From Myxococcales bacterium UBA4248 (GTDB lineage: Bacteria > Myxococcota_A > Bradymonadia > UBA4248), in the NCBI GenBank assembly GCA_002395385.1, contig DGWW01000147.1, positions 1,214 to 65,213 of the forward strand: a stretch of 64,000 nucleotides of DNA, in the 5' to 3' direction. Under the pieces are notes generated by a model, which was not told the DNA's origin, made no database searches, and saw only the letters and a list, made by a program, of their open reading frames with translations. Positions 18,536 through 55,965 of the stretch are shown here, one piece after another (the first letter of the stretch is position 1; the number at the start of each line of letters is the position of its first letter). A program made the translations under genes and the position numbers.

Positions 18536-19000
18536 CTACCATCCAAACGGCTCTCGCAAGCAGTACGCATTGGGATAATACCGAATTCTCGGCATTTTTT
18601 TTCTGGGTACGATCAGTGCGGCAATATCGCAACGATATACAGCTTTGAGCCTTGCATGGTTACCAATCCACTGTCGGATCGTCGCAGACAATTTGCGTTG
18701 TTTTGCAGCTGTGACATTGAGTTCTGGGGATAGTCCTTCTGCATTTGAACGCGATTTGACCTCGACAAAAACGACAGTCGGATAGCCTTTCAAATCAGCA
18801 TGCATCTTACAGGCAATAATATCGACCTCGCCACGCGGCGTTTCATAATTGCGCGCAAGGATGCTCCAACCGCGATTTTTTAAATAATGTATGACCAAAT
18901 TCTCTGCACTGCGACCAACTCGTCTTGCAGCCGTCAAAAAACGATAATGCGGTGTCCAGAATTGCCTCTGATGTAAGTGTTTGTGAGTTTGTTTGTTCAT
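18536..19000 (-). CDS. yraN: YraN-family (UPF0102) PD-(D/E)xK endonuclease-like protein
   Basis: ...GEVDIIACK...VVFVEVKSRSN... Start MNKQTHK at 19000 with an AGGAGG RBS. The listed ORF extends 14 codons further upstream without an RBS. Confidence 0.65.
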   Translation of the reverse strand: MNKQTHKHLHQRQFWTPHYRFLTAARRVGRSAENLVIHYLKNRGWSILARNYETPRGEVDIIACKMHADLKGYPTVVFVEVKSRSNAEGLSPELNVTAAKQRKLSATIRQWIGNHARLKAVYRCDIAALIVPRKKMPRIRYYPNAYCLREPFGW

Positions 19001-19014
19001 TCTTTTCCTCCTTT

Positions 19015-19205
19015 GTCCACAAGTTATCCACAGGATTATCACCCCCCTTGTGCAAAATCAGGCGAGTCAAGCAGAAAAACTTCTTTCTCTAAAAATATAT
19101 TTTTCCTTTTAAATACAGTAGTTTACGAAAATTGATTCAATTTTATCCTTGACAGGGTTTTCATCCGTTCATCCACAGTTTAAATTGCCATCCTGTGGAT
19201 AAGTT
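19015..19205. promoter_or_regulatory. cluster of DnaA-box-like 9-mers flanking an AT-rich stretch
   Basis: TTATCCACA at about 19024 and, on the reverse strand, at about 19194 (TGTGGATAA). Variants TTATCCTTG (19143), TTCATCCGT and TTCATCCACA (19160-19177). AT-rich block 19081-19150. Hairpin CATCCACAG...CCTGTGGATAAG. Confidence 0.5.
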
Positions 19206-19235
19206 GTGCACATTTGGGGAACTTGTGTACTTTTG

Positions 19236-21173
19236 CTAGGGTAAAAACCGAATATGCAAGCAGGAAATGCCTTGCGACTTCAAAATGGGCGAAGTTTGTT
19301 CAAAGAGTCCCCCGACATCCTCTTCGTGCACCATTTGAGGGAAAACCGCTGCCGTATAAATTTGTCGTACAAAACTGCGCAACACGAGCGAATTGGCTTT
19401 CTTTTTCTTAAGAAGCTCCCACATCCCCGCATAATGTTTTCTCATAGTCGCAACATTGCAGGAAAAAGCAGATTCCATTTTTTGAGAGGTTACAATCACT
19501 CTTGGATTATCCGGAACATCCGCAGGTGAGATGGGCACCCATCTGCCCTGAGTTTTGCCCCATAAATGCGGCATTCCCAATGTTCGACAGATGATCATTT
19601 CGTCCAATCGGAGCACCATTTTGCGCGTTTTCCACGTGTTCTGCAGTTCTTCGCGCGCCTGAATTTTAGATTCAAAATGCGCCTGATAGGTTTCAATTTC
19701 ATCACTCTGATCGCGCGCTCTAAAAGTGACAATTCGTATTTGATCATGCTTCTGCCCCTTTCGAATCAGGCGCCCGTTTCTCTGTTGGATCAGCACCGGA
19801 TTCCATGGCAAATCAAAATGTATGATTGCGCATGCCCTCTGAAAATTTTGTCCGCAGGAAAAGGCATCCGTACAAATCAATATTCGGGCCATTTTCTGCC
19901 CGGTTCTATCCCACCATTCAGGCATCTTCAGGTCGGGGTTGAACATCGCCATGAGCAAATTGGCATCGATTTCGTAATGATTTAACCGTGCAGTTCCCGA
20001 TGTGAGCAGCCCCACACGTCCCAATTCCGAAAGCGACTTCTCTAAAATGCGCGCAGTATCACAGTATTGTGTAAAAATGACGATCTGCTCATCCTCATCC
20101 ATCGTTCGAATCCATGCCTTGAGGCGATGCAGTTTTTCATCCGGTTCATGCTTGCAAATCCATTCCAATTCGTGAACAACAGAACCAATTTGATCCAGAA
20201 TCTCGTTTAGATGAAACTGCCCCGTCTGCACTTCCCGCGTTCCTTTGCCCAAAGGCAAACATAACTGCCTGCCCTCTATGCCCATCATTTTATAAAAAGC
20301 TTTGCGCGTCATCAGACGATCCTCCGGATTGAGCGCACAAATCCTATAAAACCTCGCAATTTTTTTAAGACTGCACAAACAGGCTTCGCGATGACTGAAC
20401 AGACGATGTAACAACAAATTCCGTATGAGATGCAGCTCCACGGCCCCAGTCGATGTCTGAACCAGCCACGGAACGGTCTGGATCTGTTCGATAACCCTTT
20501 GAATTCCTGATTGACATGGGCTGATTGCATACACAATCTCACAATTCTGACATCCGAACAGTCCCTCCGGCATGAGCCTCATCACCAGCGTCTGCGGACG
20601 AATGGCATTGGCAAAACTCCTCAGCCATGCATTATCCTTGATGCAATCGGGAAATCCGCACAATGACATGAGCGCCCTTAGATCTGCCCAGGACAGACTA
20701 ACCGGTGTTGCCGTAATCAGGCACACCCGATGGCGAGCAGTCCAGACGCGCAAATGGCGGTGACGAAGCGTTGCGGGATTTTTTAATAGATGCGCTTCAT
20801 CCAAAATCCATAGGCTGTCCGGCACTTTTGGACAGTCAATCCTCTCAAGACTCACCATCTGATAGGAATAGAATGAAGCTTCAACCCCAAATATCGTCAA
20901 TACCCTGCGCCAGTGATCCTGCAAATGCGCTGGCGCAGCAACGACAATGTGTACGTCCGGATTGGTTTGCATATACCACGCTGCAAGTGCGGACACGACG
21001 AATGTTTTGCCTGTTCCGGTGGACTCATCCACAAGAACTGCACGATGATTGCTCAGGATTTCACAGCATGCCTGTAACGTTCTTTGCTGAGGTACTGTCA
21101 GCAAATCAAGTATTTCTGCCCCAACGGGAGGTGGTGTTTCGCGGTCTTCCAGGTACTGTCGTATGCAATCCAT
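19236..21173 (-). CDS. SNF2-family helicase/ATPase
   Basis: Motif I DESTGTGKT, motif II DEAH, motif III LITATPV. Helicase-C motifs ...ILICTDAFSCGQNFQ...HFDLPWNPVLIQQRNGRLIRKGQ. Begins 8 bp after the methyltransferase stop, so it is in an operon. Confidence 0.9.
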   Translation of the reverse strand: MDCIRQYLEDRETPPPVGAEILDLLTVPQQRTLQACCEILSNHRAVLVDESTGTGKTFVVSALAAWYMQTNPDVHIVVAAPAHLQDHWRRVLTIFGVEASFYSYQMVSLERIDCPKVPDSLWILDEAHLLKNPATLRHRHLRVWTARHRVCLITATPVSLSWADLRALMSLCGFPDCIKDNAWLRSFANAIRPQTLVMRLMPEGLFGCQNCEIVYAISPCQSGIQRVIEQIQTVPWLVQTSTGAVELHLIRNLLLHRLFSHREACLCSLKKIARFYRICALNPEDRLMTRKAFYKMMGIEGRQLCLPLGKGTREVQTGQFHLNEILDQIGSVVHELEWICKHEPDEKLHRLKAWIRTMDEDEQIVIFTQYCDTARILEKSLSELGRVGLLTSGTARLNHYEIDANLLMAMFNPDLKMPEWWDRTGQKMARILICTDAFSCGQNFQRACAIIHFDLPWNPVLIQQRNGRLIRKGQKHDQIRIVTFRARDQSDEIETYQAHFESKIQAREELQNTWKTRKMVLRLDEMIICRTLGMPHLWGKTQGRWVPISPADVPDNPRVIVTSQKMESAFSCNVATMRKHYAGMWELLKKKKANSLVLRSFVRQIYTAAVFPQMVHEEDVGGLFEQTSPILKSQGISCLHIRFLP

Positions 21174-21181
21174 AGCTCACC

Positions 21182-24157
21182 TCATGCACAGCGAAGATGG
21201 GCACTTGCCATGTATTTTTCAATCAGCACATCAATCTGCTGTGTGACTGCGCTGCACTCTGACTTCATGGAGTGACATTGCTTAGAAAGTTCAATCATTT
21301 CCTTCACTTCATCGGATTGTGTGTCTTCCCCAAAACACCAGGGCAGCCCCTCAATGACCCAGGCAAAAAATCTTCGGTAATTGTTCTGGGCATGTTCCGC
21401 GCGACGACTACAATAATCACGGGCAAATGAAGAATTCAGATAGGCTGACAGGAGATACCCGACATCGCGCGATCTGACAGCAATGTAATAAACGGTATTC
21501 AATGGAATAATGCCGGATTCCTCCACGAAACACGCTTCAATCGTGTGTGCAATATCGCGCCAGACCACCTTCGGAAAGGCCAAATGATGCGACACACCAA
21601 ACAAAGAATGACTGCATTTGCGCCCAAGTCCCTTTCGTGCAAGCAATCCCTCCCTGTTCTGTTCAAACCAGCGCTCTGCACAAGGAGGCAATTGCCCAAG
21701 TACCTCCATTCCTCGATCAAATGCATGGGTAAACACAATTTCCCTTTCTGTTCGATACCCATACGCCCGAATATCAGCACCTCTCAACGCGGGATGTATC
21801 AGCATTCGCTCGATCTCAATCGGCTCAGAACGAGTTCTCATCCGCGCCAGCACCAAATGACCTGCAGCCATGGTCTCGGCGGGTATGAAGATGTCATTCG
21901 CCCCGGTACAGACACCTCTTTTCACTGTAAAAAAGTCGCCGATCGTACCATTCAGGGAAGACGGGTTCTTCAAAATGAGCTCCGGACGCGGCGATGGCTT
22001 TGTCTTCTGAGATACAAATGTCGGCTGTATTTCGGTCCTGCACAAAATCAAAGTTGTCGGATATGCAGCAGCCGCAAATGTATTGCATTTCGAATGAGAC
22101 AAATCCTGAATGGACATAATCACAGTATGCGAAGCAATATGGTTTCTGAAACTCTCATAGGACGGAGCATTGAATAATTTGTTCGGAACGATCATGGCAA
22201 TCAGTCCATTCGATCGCGCACATCGAATCGCTTTTTCAATAAAAAGCGCACTCACATCGGAGGATTGCGCTTTCGTCCCCCGAATGGGAATCGCCGTCTG
22301 ATAAAGCACACGAAGGGCATTTTGTGCAGAATCGGGCATGGTGTGCAGCGAAAACCACGGAGGATTCCCCAAAACCATATCAAAACCACCCTGCTCGAGA
22401 ATGTCCCCAAAATGAATTTCAAAACTGAATCCCGGAACAAGCCCAAACTCCAGATAATTCCTGAACTTAACCTTTTGTGCTTCGAGTACCGCCAGATGCT
22501 TCTGGTCCCGGACCGAAATCTGTGCTTTTCCAAACAACGCCCCTTGCACACTTCGGTACTGCCGGCATGCATCATCACACTGCGCAATCATCTGCGACAT
22601 CATCTGTGCGCTCATTCGCTGCAGATTCAGTTCGATCTGTTTGGCTAGTTTTTTCTTAGTTGGCCCCGACGAAAGCCGATAACGATGTTTCAGGTGACTG
22701 ATCTCCTGAATACATGGCAAATCGCGTTTAGGTACCCCCAGTATTTTTGCCAGCTGGCCACATTCGACCAGTGCATCACCACACTGAATGTTGACATCGA
22801 GATTTGGTAGTGAAGGAATATCCTCAGTCTTGTCAAAATATTGCATCAGCTCAAGCCATAGCCGCAGTTCACAGATTTGCCTGGCCGCTGGCACAATATC
22901 CACGCCGTACAAATTCCTCGATAAAATCTGCCTGGCTAAACTCCCCGCAGATTCCGCATGAGAATAGCGATTTTGCAATCCCGTTCGAATACGATGCAAA
23001 AGGCTCAGTGAACACTGCAAAAAAGAGCCGCTGCCAGCTGCCGGATCGAGAATCGATAGCTTCGAGAGCCGTTCTTCAATCTTTTGGGCTGCTTCCGGCC
23101 CAATATCACCATACGCATCCCTCAACAGAATCCCATCAATTTGTGCCTCCGACAACGCCGTTTCATTCCGGAACCATTGACGAAAGACATCCAGCACCAC
23201 CTTCCTCGCCATTGGAATCGGCGTATAGTAAGACCCTGTCGCATTTCGATTATCTTTGCGCATCAGGGTCTCAAACACATGACCGAGCATGAGCGGATCG
23301 AGCGACAAAGCATGATTCGACTGTGAATGATGGGTTGTCAGTGCATAACGGCCAAATAATTCCCCCAAAATTTCAATCCAAATCTCATTGGGCGCCGTCA
23401 AATGCGGAGAACGCAATTCATGCCCACCCGGCGTGAACAAACCGCCATTTAAAAATGGGATTTTTCCAAACTTGCGAACGCGCTGGGTACGCCTGTGTGG
23501 GGCACGATTGAGCGTCTCGAAAAAGAGCGGCTGCAAAAAATCACCATAGATGGATCCACCGCCATCCCGGCATTTGCGCGCCTCTGCAACCAAAAAATCC
23601 GATCGATTATCCAAAATCCCGCGAGCCTCAAGGAATGCCGTAAAAAACAACCTCAAAAGGGTATCCAATGCAAGCTGATGCCGGATTTCATGCGTATCAT
23701 TTGTAATATTCTGCCAACTTTCAGCGAGTTTGTGACAATAATGCTTAAAAGAAGCAACAAATTTCTGTTCCAAACGCCGTTTCCCAAATTTGCGATCGAG
23801 CTCAAACACAAATTCCAGATAGGTTGACAAATCTCCTAGTTCAGCCAATTCCTCATTATTTTCCCACGCCACATCGTTGGCCACAATGGGGGATGCATCA
23901 AACACTGACTGTGCATAGATATCGATGACACATTTACCCGGGTAATCGATGATCACAACCGAATCTGGGTGCGTTTGCAGAAATCGGTGAATTCGACTTA
24001 TGACTGGCGCCGCCTCAGCACCAAAGACATAGATCTCCATACACGTCCCAACGGCCTTAAATGCACTGACGACATTCGTAATTTCAGCCTCTGCCAACTC
24101 AACAATACTGGCATGCCATGCATTGCGGACAAAATCGACGAGCCCCTTGTGTTCCAT
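21182..24157 (-). CDS. large N6-adenine DNA methyltransferase of the Eco57I/MmeI/PglX-like gamma class, with a helical N-domain and a C-terminal TRD
   Basis: FLNGGLF and GSYYTP motifs, SAM motif I LDPAAGSGSFL, motif IV NPPW, C-terminal TaqI_C-like specificity region. 991 aa. Confidence 0.9.
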   Translation of the reverse strand: MEHKGLVDFVRNAWHASIVELAEAEITNVVSAFKAVGTCMEIYVFGAEAAPVISRIHRFLQTHPDSVVIIDYPGKCVIDIYAQSVFDASPIVANDVAWENNEELAELGDLSTYLEFVFELDRKFGKRRLEQKFVASFKHYCHKLAESWQNITNDTHEIRHQLALDTLLRLFFTAFLEARGILDNRSDFLVAEARKCRDGGGSIYGDFLQPLFFETLNRAPHRRTQRVRKFGKIPFLNGGLFTPGGHELRSPHLTAPNEIWIEILGELFGRYALTTHHSQSNHALSLDPLMLGHVFETLMRKDNRNATGSYYTPIPMARKVVLDVFRQWFRNETALSEAQIDGILLRDAYGDIGPEAAQKIEERLSKLSILDPAAGSGSFLQCSLSLLHRIRTGLQNRYSHAESAGSLARQILSRNLYGVDIVPAARQICELRLWLELMQYFDKTEDIPSLPNLDVNIQCGDALVECGQLAKILGVPKRDLPCIQEISHLKHRYRLSSGPTKKKLAKQIELNLQRMSAQMMSQMIAQCDDACRQYRSVQGALFGKAQISVRDQKHLAVLEAQKVKFRNYLEFGLVPGFSFEIHFGDILEQGGFDMVLGNPPWFSLHTMPDSAQNALRVLYQTAIPIRGTKAQSSDVSALFIEKAIRCARSNGLIAMIVPNKLFNAPSYESFRNHIASHTVIMSIQDLSHSKCNTFAAAAYPTTLILCRTEIQPTFVSQKTKPSPRPELILKNPSSLNGTIGDFFTVKRGVCTGANDIFIPAETMAAGHLVLARMRTRSEPIEIERMLIHPALRGADIRAYGYRTEREIVFTHAFDRGMEVLGQLPPCAERWFEQNREGLLARKGLGRKCSHSLFGVSHHLAFPKVVWRDIAHTIEACFVEESGIIPLNTVYYIAVRSRDVGYLLSAYLNSSFARDYCSRRAEHAQNNYRRFFAWVIEGLPWCFGEDTQSDEVKEMIELSKQCHSMKSECSAVTQQIDVLIEKYMASAHLRCA

Positions 24158-24190
24158 GGTTCATTCTCCCTGATGTGTTTTGAGTCACAC

Positions 24191-24236
24191 TCATTATATG
24201 GGCAATTTTTGACAAAAACGGCCAAAAAAAATGCAT
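24191..24236. promoter_or_regulatory. 45 bp dyad-symmetric promoter-region element, copy 1 of 3
   Basis: TATATGGGCAATTTTTGACAAAAACGGCCAAAAAAAATGCAT, 35-80 bp upstream of the methyltransferase start codon. On the minus strand it carries TATAAT. Copies 2 and 3 are at 47300 and 55841. Confidence 0.6.
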
Positions 24237-24261
24237 CAGGGTACTTTTTTTTATTTGCCGG

Positions 24262-24335
24262 GCTTTTCGGCTTTGCCTCAATACGCCCGGCCGCGTCCGC
24301 TATTGCCGTGGGCAATACGCGTCCGCCACCTTTTT
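24262..24335. repeat. REP-like palindromic repeat
   Basis: ..CAATACGCCCGGCC..GCTATTGCC-GTG-GGCAATACGCG.. Confidence 0.55.
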
Positions 24336-31989: not shown

Positions 31990-34212
31990 TCACCCACCAA
32001 GTGCACAATTCAATCGATAGGCAAGCCGCGTATAACGCATCGCAGGCCGATCATTCTCAATCGCCATTTTGAGTGTGTAAGAATCCGTAATAAAGACGGC
32101 CGTTTTCCGTGCACGGGTCAGCGCCGTATAAATGAGGTTACGCTGCAGCATAAAGCTCTGACTGCGCAAAAAACAACAAATGACCGCAGGATATTCGCTT
32201 CCCTGCGATTTATGAACCGTGCAGGCATAGGCGAGTGCCAGATTCTCGAGATTCTTTTTCGTATATTCGACCAAGCGTCCGTCGAAATCGACGATAGCCT
32301 TGCCGGATGATTCGGCGACGATTTTTCCGATATCGCCGTTAAAAACGTCATGTTCATAATCGTTTTTAAGCTGCATGACGCGATCACCAATGCGAAAACC
32401 GGCATACGAAAATGCGATGGGATTGCCGGACGGATTGAGCTTATCCTGTAAAATCTGATTGAGATGCTCGACACCGCCTGCGTTCTGTCGCATTGGGCAC
32501 AGTACCTGAATCTCATTCATCGGATCGAGCCCATACCGTTGAGGAAGCTTTTCACAAACGAGCTGCTCAATGAGATGTTCGGCATGCTCTGGCGTTGCGG
32601 CATTAAAAAGGTAAAACTCGCATCCCGGAGAAGCCATTTCTTCACGACTCGGAACAATGGGGTAAGCTCCCTCGTTAATGCGATGCGCATTCTTGACGAT
32701 CAGACTCTGCTCGGCCTGCCGGAAAACCGTCTTTAACCGAATAACCGGCAAACAGTTCGATGAAATCAAGTCTTTAAGTACAGTTCCCGTCCCGACACTC
32801 GGTAGCTGATCGACATCCCCGACGAGAATGATCCGCGCATCGTTGGGCAGAGCAACGAGCAGAGACCGCATCAGTGTCAAATCGATCATCGAGGATTCAT
32901 CGACAATATAAATCCCGGCCGGAAGCGGATTATCTTCATTTCGCGTAAATGCCCCGCGCGAATCTGTGACGTATGCATATTCGAGCAGACGGTGAATTGT
33001 CTTGGCCTCGATGCCCGTCGTCTCATTCAGCCGTTTGGAGGCACGCCCCGTCGGAGCTGCCAAAAAAACGGGAATATCCTGTTCCTGGGCGGCAGCAACA
33101 AAAACTTTGACAAGCGTCGTCTTGCCGGTGCCTGGTCCGCCCGTAATGACCATGAATTTTTCGTAAAGCCCCGTCAAAACTGCCTCTCGCTGCTGAGGGG
33201 CCAACTCAATCCCGAGCCGCGTTTCAATGCGTCGCACGGCCGCCATATCATCTTCATTCGGCTTGCCGTGGGAAGAGGCTTTCACCATGCGTGCAATTTC
33301 ATTGGCCACCGAATGCTCCAGATTCCACATAAACGCACGATAGACGAGCGTCTCACCGGTTTCATCCCGGTCCGTCCGAATCGAACGCCGTTCGATGAGC
33401 GCATCGATATGCTCCTCGATCCGGGCCGGATCGACCTGCAGAAGACGAGCTGCCGTCTCGATCAGCACCTGACGCGGCAAATAACAATGGCCATCCGTAT
33501 TCTCCGCCTCATACAACGCATAATCGATCCCCGCTTCGATGCGCATCGGATTATCCGGCGCAATTCCCATCTGAGCAGCAATCTGATCGGCACGTTTAAA
33601 CCCAATCCCAGTCACCTCTTTCGATAAAAGATAAGGCTGCTGATTCAAAATCGGAATAATCTTTTTGCCATAAAGGCCAATCAGTTTCGAAGACAGTTCA
33701 AAGGACAGACCATGCCCCTGCAGATAAACAAACAGCTGACGATTGCCTTGTTTTTCCGACCATTCTTCCAGGATCAAATCGAGTTTCTTACGCGAAATCC
33801 CCTTCACTTCCAGCAGTTTTTCGGGATCATGATCCAACACATTGACCGTATTCTCGCCAAATTTCTGGATGATCCGTTCTGCCATGCGCAGCCCGATCCC
33901 CGTGAGCTGGGATGACAAAAAACGCGCCAGCCCCACACTCGAAGTCGGCATCGCAATCTCGCACGACTCGACCTTGAGCTGAACACCATATTTCGAATCC
34001 ACCCAAGTCCCTTTGACGCGGATTTCATCGTCTACCTTGAACGCAGCGAGCGTCCCTACGAGCGTAAACGGATGATTTCTGCGCGTCACGGCATCGAGAA
34101 TTGCATAGGAATTCTCGGGATTGACGTAACGCACACGCGTGATCCGAGCCGTCGTCTGGACGGTTTCACCCACTTTTTTTTCAAAAGACGGAAGCTGAAT
34201 CTGAGATGACAT
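31990..34212 (-). CDS. recD2: ATP-dependent RecD-like DNA helicase (RecD2)
   Basis: N-terminal HhH/OB region. SF1 motifs GGPGTGKTT, AAPTGRASKRL, DESSMID. C-terminal helicase motifs. Confidence 0.85.
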   Translation of the reverse strand: MSSQIQLPSFEKKVGETVQTTARITRVRYVNPENSYAILDAVTRRNHPFTLVGTLAAFKVDDEIRVKGTWVDSKYGVQLKVESCEIAMPTSSVGLARFLSSQLTGIGLRMAERIIQKFGENTVNVLDHDPEKLLEVKGISRKKLDLILEEWSEKQGNRQLFVYLQGHGLSFELSSKLIGLYGKKIIPILNQQPYLLSKEVTGIGFKRADQIAAQMGIAPDNPMRIEAGIDYALYEAENTDGHCYLPRQVLIETAARLLQVDPARIEEHIDALIERRSIRTDRDETGETLVYRAFMWNLEHSVANEIARMVKASSHGKPNEDDMAAVRRIETRLGIELAPQQREAVLTGLYEKFMVITGGPGTGKTTLVKVFVAAAQEQDIPVFLAAPTGRASKRLNETTGIEAKTIHRLLEYAYVTDSRGAFTRNEDNPLPAGIYIVDESSMIDLTLMRSLLVALPNDARIILVGDVDQLPSVGTGTVLKDLISSNCLPVIRLKTVFRQAEQSLIVKNAHRINEGAYPIVPSREEMASPGCEFYLFNAATPEHAEHLIEQLVCEKLPQRYGLDPMNEIQVLCPMRQNAGGVEHLNQILQDKLNPSGNPIAFSYAGFRIGDRVMQLKNDYEHDVFNGDIGKIVAESSGKAIVDFDGRLVEYTKKNLENLALAYACTVHKSQGSEYPAVICCFLRSQSFMLQRNLIYTALTRARKTAVFITDSYTLKMAIENDRPAMRYTRLAYRLNCALGG

Positions 34213-34437
34213 CTGTAAACAACAGGTTGGAGTGATGTTTAAACGTAATTAGGAATTCTAAAGGTATTATCTAATGTATCGAGTTGCTTTAGCTCTGAGA
34301 ATCATTGAACGATTTGTTCTTCAAATCTGCTCACATTATATATTGGCAAAAAATCAAAAAAACGGCCGATTTTTTTTATTCAATATCATTTTTTTTTGGC
34401 TGAATTCATCGTTAGCCAAAACATAGCCTTTTTTGTG

Positions 34438-51824: not shown

Positions 51825-51831
51825 GTAAGTC

Positions 51832-51905
51832 CGGTGCGTATTGTGGCAACGCCACAATAGCACCGGCAAATGACGCGTATTTGGCATCGCCAAAAAGCGG
51901 CATTT
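51832..51905. repeat. REP-like palindrome
   Basis: CCGGTGCGTATTGTGGC-AAC-GCCACAATAGCACCGG. Confidence 0.65.
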
Positions 51906-54352: not shown

Positions 54353-55798
54353 CTAAAGCATAAATGTGCAAATAAACAATACAGCATTTAACAAAACAAT
54401 GCCGACAACGATGGCAAGCCATGAAGTGAGACGTGACTTGCCATCGTTATTTTTTGGCTCATATCGTCCGCTGTTTTGTAAATCCAAATGCATTCCGGTT
54501 TCAATTCTTTGGATATCAGCAATCATATCGGTCGCATTTTTATAACGAAAATCCGGATCTTTATTGAGTGCACGCCGCAGCATATCTCCCATCGGGGATT
54601 GCAGTATCCATTGCGGAATTGGAATCGGTTCAGGTGAGGTCGATAATTTAACAATGGATACGGGAGATTTCGGCAACAATGCCTTCCCCGTCAGCATTTC
54701 GACGAGAATGAGTGCAATCGAATAGAGATCAGTCGAATGCGTTGCTTCATCCCCATAAAGCAATTCCGGCGCCAGATATTGCGGCGTACCCAATATTTTT
54801 CCATTCTCTGTCAGACGAGGCATACCTCTGTATTGAACTTTGGCAATGCCAAAATCGAGAACTTTTACAAAATCCTGTTCACCAATAATATTTCGAATCA
54901 GAATATTCGAGGGCTTGAGATCCCGATGTATAATTCCTCGCTCATGCGCTTCGTGAATGCTTTTAAGTATTTGTTTGGCAATATTAAGAGAACGCAGAGG
55001 ATCGAGTGAGTGCTCGATATCAATGAGCTCCCTGAGGGACTTGCCTTCAATATATTCCATGACATAATATAGGTGATTGTCATCCATACCGGCATCGATC
55101 AATTGTATGGTATTGGGATGCACCAGGTCTTTGATGATATTGGCTTCGAGAAAGAATCGTTTAACATTTGAACAATCATTCTGTGCATGAAGCCGCTTGA
55201 GCGCAACAACGCGATCGAGGCCGATTTGCCTTGCCCGATAAACGATACCAAAACCGCCGCGGGATATTTCGGACAAGATTTCATATCGGTTTCCAATGAC
55301 TTTTCCAATATCGACTTCTCTCGAATCAAGCCTGGTCGATTCTTTGGATGGAGACAATAGCTTATCCTCCGTGAGTTCAACGGTCTCGTCGGCCTGTTTG
55401 CTGGCGAGCGGAAGCATGTGCCGGCAAGTCGGCGTAGCCAATTCGTTGGAAATCGTTCTGTCATCGGTATTGGTCTTTTCATCTGCAGTATTTGAGGATA
55501 TCGCAAAGACCCTCGTTTTTTTATCATTCCCTTTGGGCGCATCCACAAATTGAACCGTTTTTTGATTGCGCCCCGGAACAGATTTAAAACAGGTTTCACA
55601 CTCAGGGTCTATTTTGTCGATATAGCGTGTTACAGCCGTATCCCCAATTCCGTCGCGAATTTCAGAGGCCAAAGAATGCTGTCTGGTTGTTCCTTCTTTA
55701 AGATTCATGCAGCCACTTACGGTATCTGCAAGCCCAATGGAATAACCAGAAATGGTAGTGCGAGCTGTCAAAAGACTAATCGATGCTGAATAATTCAT
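54353..55798 (-). CDS. Ser/Thr protein kinase with a canonical catalytic loop, an N-terminal extension and a C-terminal TM anchor
   Basis: Motifs GRGGFGIVYRA, VALKRL, HRDLKPSN, DFGIAK, PQYLAPE. C-terminal TM LAIVVGIVLLNAVLFICTFML. AAGGAG RBS. Confidence 0.9.
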   Translation of the reverse strand: MNYSASISLLTARTTISGYSIGLADTVSGCMNLKEGTTRQHSLASEIRDGIGDTAVTRYIDKIDPECETCFKSVPGRNQKTVQFVDAPKGNDKKTRVFAISSNTADEKTNTDDRTISNELATPTCRHMLPLASKQADETVELTEDKLLSPSKESTRLDSREVDIGKVIGNRYEILSEISRGGFGIVYRARQIGLDRVVALKRLHAQNDCSNVKRFFLEANIIKDLVHPNTIQLIDAGMDDNHLYYVMEYIEGKSLRELIDIEHSLDPLRSLNIAKQILKSIHEAHERGIIHRDLKPSNILIRNIIGEQDFVKVLDFGIAKVQYRGMPRLTENGKILGTPQYLAPELLYGDEATHSTDLYSIALILVEMLTGKALLPKSPVSIVKLSTSPEPIPIPQWILQSPMGDMLRRALNKDPDFRYKNATDMIADIQRIETGMHLDLQNSGRYEPKNNDGKSRLTSWLAIVVGIVLLNAVLFICTFML

Positions 55799-55840
55799 GG
55801 GTCACTCCTTGACGATACGGGTTATCGAAAATGTGGATAT

Positions 55841-55884
55841 CTATAATATGGGCAATTTTTTCAAAAAAAGGCCAAAAAATTGAG
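55841..55884. promoter_or_regulatory. 45 bp dyad-symmetric element, copy 3 of 3, in the promoter region of the kinase gene
   Basis: CTATAATATGGGCAATTTTTTCAAAAAAAGGCCAAAAAATTGAG, 40-90 bp upstream of the kinase ATG. Confidence 0.6.
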
Positions 55885-55965
55885 AAAAAATAAAAAAAAT
55901 ATACAATAGCTCATTCTAACCGTGAGAAACCGATGGTTTCTTGCGACGATGAAGTGAGGACCGGA

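Follow-up and report, generated by a model that had tools for sequence, protein, structure and literature searches.

Background

Promoters of the sigma-32 (RpoH) class follow the consensus CTTGAAA-N13-15-CCCCATNT and those of the sigma-28/SigD class the consensus TAAAGTTT-N11-GCCGATAA(T). In MerR-type promoters a dyad operator is placed inside a spacer of 19-20 bp, so that the dyad spans the interval from the -35 to the -10 element, and at mycobacterial DNA-damage promoters PafBC replaces the -35. The regulons of autoregulated ECF-type sigma factors are marked by two short conserved blocks, at -35 and -10, held at a fixed spacing, and by a high information content and an all-or-none distribution of the motif.

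The DNA analyzed here, a stretch of 64,000 nucleotides referred to as the window, is ordinary chromosome carrying rnpA-yidC-jag, dnaX-ybaB, recD2, psd, two tRNAs, several Ser/Thr kinases and FHA proteins. An identical contig is present in a sheep-rumen metagenome assembly, and the closest named relatives are rumen metagenome-assembled genomes labelled 'Proteobacteria bacterium'. A preliminary description of the window reported a dyad-symmetric element of about 45 bp in three promoter regions and regarded it as a transcription-factor operator or a mobile promoter cassette, which would link a putative defence operon to a signalling kinase.

In this work we have analyzed the copies of this element, their relatives in the clade and the genes below them. 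The reading that fits the repeat best is that of a promoter type peculiar to this lineage, serving four genes or operons of the window.

Results and discussion

Copies of the module in the window

A 21-nt core searched with up to three mismatches matched only three sites in the 64 kb (0.01 expected by chance). These are the three copies already described, at 24191-24236 (copy 1), 47300-47343 (copy 2) and 55841-55885 (copy 3), which share one orientation and stand where they had been placed relative to the methyltransferase gene (ATG at 24157), the kinase gene (ATG at 55798) and the gap between ssb and gene 47478. The count of three was nevertheless incomplete: a fourth, more diverged copy at 34335-34377 on the minus strand (GGCCGTTTTTTTGATTTTTTGCCAATATATAAT), 5' of recD2, surfaced when clade intergenic regions were scanned for the right-hand block of the motif. 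The pattern GGCC-N17-CCMATAT has four exact matches in the window versus 0.02 expected, and all four copies are intergenic, lie on the minus strand and point toward the adjacent minus-strand gene.

Copy 1 (24188..24231, minus strand) consists of T8 (24231-24224), the -35-like GGCCGT (24223-24218), a 17-bp A/T spacer ending in GCC and the -10-like CATATA (24200-24195), which overlaps a TATAAT (24198-24193). We infer a transcription start at about 24188; it would be followed by the Shine-Dalgarno sequence (SD) GGGAGAA and the ATG at 24157, 36 nt after TATAAT. The transcription unit below (18536..24157, minus) encodes a 991-aa Eco57I/MmeI-type N6-methyltransferase (21182-24157), a SNF2-type helicase (19236-21173) and a UPF0102/YraN protein (18536-19042), all on the minus strand. 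Copy 3 (55838..55879, minus) is built in the same manner from T6 (55879-55874), GGCCTT (55873-55868), CATATT (55850-55845) and TATTAT (55848-55843), with a predicted start at about 55838, the SD AAGGAG and the ATG of a 481-aa Ser/Thr protein kinase (54353..55798, minus) 45 nt after TATTAT. The 9-mer GATATCCACA (55835-55843, minus), directly after the -10-like block of copy 3 and kept in the contig of an 84% relative (L075), fits the DnaA-box consensus TTATCCACA at 8 of 9 positions, which may be coincidence. PADLOC matches for the kinase, the methyltransferase and the helicase were set aside as generic domain matches.

Copy 4 (34332..34377, minus) has GGCCGT at 34367-34362, the spacer TTTTTTGATTTTTTGCC, AATATA at 34344-34339 and TATAAT at 34340-34335; its predicted start, at about 34332, precedes the ATG of recD2 helicase (31990..34212, minus) at 34212 by about 120 nt. 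As this spacer has no A-run, the recD2 copy forms no dyad. Copy 2 (47296..47339, minus) carries T8 (47339-47332), GGCCGT (47331-47326) and CATATA (47308-47303), with a start predicted at about 47296. Further along the minus strand, the first credible gene is ssb (46523-46897), which begins about 390 nt on with the ATG at 46897 and has 124 codons' worth of protein (124 aa) in the annotation of the identical public contig; ssb and the YhgA/Rpn-like gene after it (45224-46129, minus) are possible targets of this copy. The roughly 390 nt between copy 2 and the ssb start codon (46898-47295, minus) hold no convincing ORF and could be a long ssb leader or a separate small transcript; no Rfam match was obtained on the window or on this leader. 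A frame of 45-75 aa overlaps the module in this region, and in the annotation of the public contig a plus-strand gene of 83 aa crosses it.

A second intergenic element, a REP-like palindrome family, was encountered at 24255-24325, 43130-43190, 48250-48320 and 51830-51865 of the window and in contigs L038, L041, L086, L088, L091 and L092. Its conserved core is GCGTATTG...CAATAGC and its outer stems are variable and mutually complementary, e.g. CCGGTGCGTATTGTGGCAACGCCACAATAGCACCGG; six occurrences of GCGTATTG in the window compare with 1.7 expected. The copies of this family are intergenic without exception and often sit just upstream of the promoter module.

Anatomy of the module

Read on the gene strand, copies 1-3 have the form T6-8 GGCC(G/T) TTTTT NNN AAAAA TT GCCC ATAT (A/T)(A/T)(T/A). 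We aligned 17 instances, comprising the window copies, metagenome contigs found by pattern and orthologous promoters fetched through their proteins. Common to them are a T-run followed by GGCC(G/T)T, a 17-bp spacer of almost purely A/T composition and CC-(C/A)ATAT(A/T). The distance from GGCC to CC(C/A)ATAT, start to start, is 21 nt in all 13 close instances. The T-run, GGCC, T5, CC and ATAT are near-invariant, an invariance that is partly built in because in the metagenome instances the search pattern itself forces several of these positions; the spacer centre and positions -17 to -15 vary. If (C/A)ATAT(A/T) is set as -12 to -7, CC falls at -14/-13, GGCC(G/T)T at -35 to -30 with a 17-bp spacer, and the T-run at -43 to -36. 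In 8 of the 13 close copies an ATG with its SD follows the -10-like hexamer by 31-46 nt, that is, 25-40 nt past the predicted start.

The proposal that the element be read on the gene strand with a -10-like hexamer is supported. Its spacing to the -35, said earlier to be non-canonical, depends on the register: this holds if TATAAT or TATTAT is the -10, but with (C/A)ATAT(A/T) in that role GGCC(G/T)T stands exactly 17 bp upstream. The true -10 could also be a TATAAT/TATAAG-like hexamer that lies 2-4 bp further downstream than the invariant ATAT; GGCC, then 19-21 bp away, would not serve as a -35 hexamer. The spacer reads T5-N3-A5 in 11 of the 13 close copies, and such a conserved spacer sequence is unusual for recognition by sigma alone.

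Ordinary promoters of the window look different. Those of the tRNAs are canonical (tRNA-Ser TTGCAT-17-TAATAA; tRNA-Val TTGACA-17-TACAAG) and lack the motif. Back to back with copy 3 lies a sigma-70-type promoter, TTGAGA-16-TACAAT (55880..55907, plus strand), for a divergent 723-aa gene, and a similar one, TTGAGA-16-CACAAT (47373-47400), lies beside copy 2 for the divergent gene there. These observations bear on the idea that the module serves the primary sigma factor as a constitutive promoter of unusual strength, with the T-run as an UP element, the A/T spacer as a source of curvature and no dedicated regulator. The A/T tracts upstream of and inside the promoter would suit it, as would TATAAT in copies 1 and 4 and TATTAT in copy 3. 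Yet no TTGACA-like hexamer is found 16-18 bp from any -10 candidate, most copies lack the T at -7 in every register, the tRNA promoters do without the motif, and the class is discrete rather than graded, so we regard this explanation as improbable.

The palindrome

Each of the three copies had been said to contain an imperfect palindrome, and this is borne out: in GGC-NN-TTTTT-NNN-AAAAA-NN-GCC two imperfectly matching 10-nt arms enclose a 3-nt loop, and 11 of the 13 close copies have this dyad. Counted pair by pair over the 13 instances, the arms are complementary at pairs 1-3 and 6-10 in 11-13 of them, at pair 4 in none and at pair 5 in one. The internal 2x2 mismatch is constant and no compensatory changes were seen. 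Two instances have largely lost the symmetry with both outer blocks in register: the recD2 copy keeps 4 of 10 pairs, because T6 has replaced A5, and L092 keeps 5 of 10. The right-arm G is gone in L091, L092 and L081, again with both outer blocks in place. As a single-stranded DNA hairpin the repeat folds with -3 to -5 kcal/mol and z-scores of -1.7 to +0.3, no more stable than shuffled sequences. From this decay with both blocks retained, and from folding that is no better than that of shuffles, it follows that the palindrome is real but is not the conserved feature; the dyad operator proposed for these sites is not supported.

The main rival to an alternative sigma factor would be a housekeeping sigma-70 holoenzyme assisted by a dimeric transcription factor bound to a 23-bp dyad, GGC-N17-GCC. 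This factor might be a MerR-type activator compensating for an over-long spacer (TTGGCC-19-CATATW), an activator that replaces the -35 in the manner of PafBC, or a LexA/DdrO-like repressor over the promoters of a DNA-transaction regulon (recD2, ssb, SNF2/methyltransferase, nuclease). The eight pairs complementary in 11 of 13 copies, the span of the dyad from the -35-like to the -10-like block, the conserved spacer sequence and the several targets that act on DNA all agree with it. It is opposed by pairs 4 and 5, by the two copies with 4-5 of 10 pairs and blocks in register, by the three losses of the right-arm G and by the gene content of the window, in which no MerR-family or other helix-turn-helix regulator was detected among the ORFs tested against Pfam or by tblastn with CueR and MerR. 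On balance this reading is somewhat unlikely. The comparison with MerR-type promoters in particular is mixed: TTGGCC-19-CATATW can be read, with a dyad from inside the -35 to the -10 edge, whereas here 2 of 13 copies do without the dyad, orthologues show its decay, and the GGCCKT reading gives a normal 17-bp spacer. The same searches of the 64 kb detected no merR gene nearby, the divergent neighbours encoding proteins of 253 and 723 aa without a family match.

An element acting through the hairpin itself, as a terminator, an RNA structure or a cruciform/N4-type hairpin promoter, is suggested by the 10-nt inverted repeat with its 3-nt loop. The T-run precedes the hairpin on the gene strand and the A-run follows it on the other, so terminator geometry exists on neither strand; together with the constant 2x2 mismatch without compensatory change, the shuffle-like z-scores and the lack of an Rfam match, this makes a hairpin-based function very improbable. 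An intrinsic terminator was rejected on the position of the T-run and the folding energy.

Instead, the palindrome would have arisen incidentally from a T-run/A-run spacer with a G/C-rich block on either side.

Conservation at orthologous promoters

The promoters of orthologues were fetched through the encoded proteins and are therefore independent of the DNA pattern. The kinase gene is syntenic in relatives whose kinases are 84%, 63%, 49%, 47% and 46% identical, standing between a gene for an uncharacterized protein of about 700 aa and one for an S9 peptidase. The cluster of psd, methyltransferase, N6-methyltransferase, SNF2 and YraN genes is likewise syntenic in relatives at 85%, 48% and 46%. 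The kinase gene and the methyltransferase cluster are core genes and not islands. The full module is kept in the 84% (kinase) and 85% (methyltransferase) relatives, and both blocks are in register upstream of the kinase orthologues in L075 (84%), L081 (63%) and L084 (46%) and of the methyltransferase orthologues in L086 (85%), L088 (46%) and L087 (48%). The distant orthologues read GGCC..aCAATAa (L081), GACC..CCAATAa (L084), cGCC..aCAATAT (L087) and aGgC..CaCATAT (L088). Two further distant kinase promoters, those of L077 and L079, have their upstream block displaced from the register by 2-3 bp.

This conservation decides against the idea that a mobile promoter cassette, or a MITE-like repeat, has reached unrelated genes in recent times. 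Near-identical copies of 40-45 bp before non-homologous genes do resemble such a spread. When copies 1-3 are aligned with 100-bp flanks, however, the similarity is restricted to about 45 bp and ends at the module edges, with no extended homology, flanking or terminal repeats or target duplications; the differences between copies fall at variable positions and fit selection, not recent copying; and no copies were found in the viral collection. The genes below the module belong to the syntenic core in relatives with identities as low as about 46%, and their orthologues have retained the motif in their promoters. The cassette offered in the preliminary description is for these reasons scarcely credible. 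The label of a putative defence operon has also become doubtful, since relatives throughout the clade have the methyltransferase-SNF2-YraN cluster at the same place. What stands of the proposed link is a shared promoter-region module joining the methyltransferase-helicase operon to the kinase, now with recD2 and the ssb region included.

When about 250 kb of clade DNA was scanned with a profile and a PWM, the scores were bimodal: members reached 37-60 bits, and beyond them there were only reverse-strand self-hits and two or three marginal matches at 12-17 bits. The marginal matches are the out-of-register kinase promoters of L077 and L079 and one site in L087, of the 48% relative (22845-22885; TTGCCCATATATCC), 25 nt before the SD/ATG of a DJ-1/PfpI gene. 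This last site has the right-hand block without the upstream GGCC block and may be a degenerate member or a chance match.

A relaxed scan of metagenome contigs yielded 69 loci, mostly chance hairpins. The module was found there at a methyltransferase orthologue (L038), upstream of an Rpn-like nuclease gene (L041), upstream of a gene for a 183-aa sigma-like protein (L006/L029) and upstream of a conserved region of about 400 nt (L050, L065). In the 84% relative (L074/L075, 11471 onward) an Rpn-like nuclease gene whose product is about 60% identical to that of L041 starts 16 bp after the kinase gene; in the window the kinase gene is followed by the S9 peptidase gene, a variation of gene content beside a regulon member. 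The 400-nt region (L065 8330-8760, plus; L050 about 1000-1436, minus) comes directly after the module in two different genomic contexts, contains a G-rich stretch (GGTGGAGGCGGCGGGCGGGTGGGGGCCC) and a terminal hairpin (AGCGGCGTATCG..CAGATAGCCGCT), and is absent from the window. It cannot be coding, because indels break every reading frame, and an Rfam search up to E<=1 gave no match to it; we take it for a probable non-coding RNA that has not been described so far.

Two apparent relatives of the module were discarded, the L009-type family as a long multi-copy repeat of another organism and L018 as a eukaryote-like contig. An exact scan of species-representative genomes for GGCCNTTTTNNNNNAAAATTGCCCATA returned a single Legionella site, probably a chance occurrence; the assemblies of the relatives are evidently not among the representatives. 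Two scans of viral collections gave nothing or chance matches only.

A candidate sigma factor

The 183-aa protein encoded below the L006 copy has only four relatives in the protein collection searched. All four (P0241-P0244) match Sigma70_r2, the best at 2.6e-5, just under the Pfam cut-off, and one of them matches TIGR02937 (sigma70-ECF) at 9.6e-5. A profile search of the PDB with this family returned region 2 of RpoS or sigma-K in 8 of 9 matches. In an AF2 model the N-terminal domain has a pLDDT of about 80 and the C-terminal half is poorly modelled; Foldseek matches were almost all sigma factors, at weak E-values, with the N-terminal domain of SigE at a TM-score of 0.64 and an rmsd of 3.4 A. 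The module precedes the ATG of the sigma-like gene by 31-36 nt in every lineage for which upstream sequence is present (L006, L090/L091, L092).

The sigma-like gene lies outside the window and is tied to the organism of the window by sample co-occurrence only: L090/L091 come from the same sample as the 84% relative and L092 from the run that also gave the 63% kinase orthologue. In the window itself no regulator or sigma gene was detected by Pfam on about 40 ORFs or by tblastn with CueR and MerR. We consider the 183-aa protein a candidate autoregulated cognate sigma, for which the observed pattern is the expected one without amounting to proof; its gene may simply be another member of the regulon. 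At the sigma-like locus (L006 941-1861; L090 770-1689; L091 1958-2877) DUF2505 and YjbQ-family genes always follow, and the sigma-like gene faces a gene for a 450-aa double-FHA protein. The DUF2505 protein could be a partner or an anti-sigma of the sigma-like protein. L077/L079 also have a Sigma70_r4 gene close to that of the kinase; it bears no relation to the 183-aa protein, and its promoter is of the ordinary kind.

Comparison with described promoter classes

The position and orientation of the module, its distance to the SD and its conservation at orthologous promoters make us confident that it is a promoter. That the class is read by an alternative sigma factor of the sigma-70 family seems to us somewhat the better bet, given a -35-like block unlike TTGACA, ordinary window promoters that are canonical and an all-or-none class; two invariant blocks at canonical spacing, the C-rich extended -10 and a sigma-like gene that bears the motif add to this preference. 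To our knowledge GGCCKT as a -35 and CC-MATATW as a -10 match no described consensus.

With ECF-type autoregulated regulons the module shares the two short blocks at fixed spacing, the high information content, the all-or-none distribution and the small sigma-like gene with the motif upstream. It differs in a compositionally constrained spacer, of A/T only and usually T5-N3-A5, in a candidate sigma below family thresholds and in having no identified anti-sigma. The -10 block resembles those of group-3 sigma factors, namely the CCCCATNT of sigma-32 and the GCCGATAA/T of sigma-28/SigD. The (G)CC(C/A)ATAT of all close copies fits the sigma-32 element, with A at -11 and a C-rich extended -10, but GGCC(G/T)T stands where CTTGAAA is expected, 13-15 bp upstream of CCCCAT, and the targets seen are not chaperones or proteases. 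In the case of sigma-28/SigD, GCC-N-ATAT resembles GCCGATAT, and the layout GGCCGTTT-N12-GCCCATAT is nearly identical, GTTT being in common, whereas the module has GGCC for TAAA, C or A for the key G of CGA, and no flagellar or chemotaxis targets. A sigma-54 promoter (TGGCAC-N5-TTGC, GG and GC 12 bp apart) was rejected, TGGC and TTGC being present but 20 bp apart. The Bacteroidetes consensus TTTG/TAnnTTTG, TTGCCC as a -35, and the CodY, Fis and LexA boxes were also rejected as readings of the motif.

In the composition of its regulon the system recalls those of competence sigma factors (ComX/SigH, cin-box) and the non-LexA damage regulons (PafBC, RecA-NDp; DdrO, RDRM), in which a small divergent sigma or special factor serves targets that include ssb, helicases, a DNA methyltransferase and a nuclease from promoters without a canonical -35. 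The cin-box, RecA-NDp and RDRM have no sequence similarity to the motif, and the kinase and non-coding RNA targets do not fit. One may still imagine a small divergent sigma that autoregulates and switches on a DNA-transaction set (recD2, ssb, the SNF2 helicase, N6-methyltransferase and YraN cluster, and the Rpn-like nuclease), the kinase and the 400-nt RNA in a competence-like or SOS-substitute programme, in which the T5-N3-A5 dyad could be a second layer of control, for a repressor; we consider a programme of this composition quite unlikely.

Under the preferred reading, that of a promoter recognized by an alternative sigma, the minus-strand module would comprise the T-run (about -43 to -36), GGCC(G/T)T as the -35-like block, the A/T spacer, CC as the extended -10 and (C/A)ATAT(A/T), with transcription predicted to start about 7 nt downstream of the -10-like block. 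The mRNAs of the methyltransferase-SNF2-YraN operon and of the kinase would then have leaders of 25-40 nt and that of recD2 one of about 120 nt, and the ssb leader would reach about 390 nt if copy 2 drives ssb. The divergent 183-aa sigma-like protein would be the best candidate for the reader, with positive autoregulation as in ECF sigma factors.

Conclusions

The module is a new promoter motif, and it probably marks a new sigma regulon of an uncultured lineage. It also illustrates how conspicuous dyad symmetry within a promoter can be incidental. T-run-GGCCKT-N17(A/T)-CC-MATATW provides a concrete regulon marker for this uncultured rumen lineage, and it comes with four targets in one window, predicted start sites and a candidate sigma factor. 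For the organism, the methyltransferase-helicase cluster would be read as a conserved core operon co-controlled with recD2, ssb and the kinase, and not as a mobile defence island.
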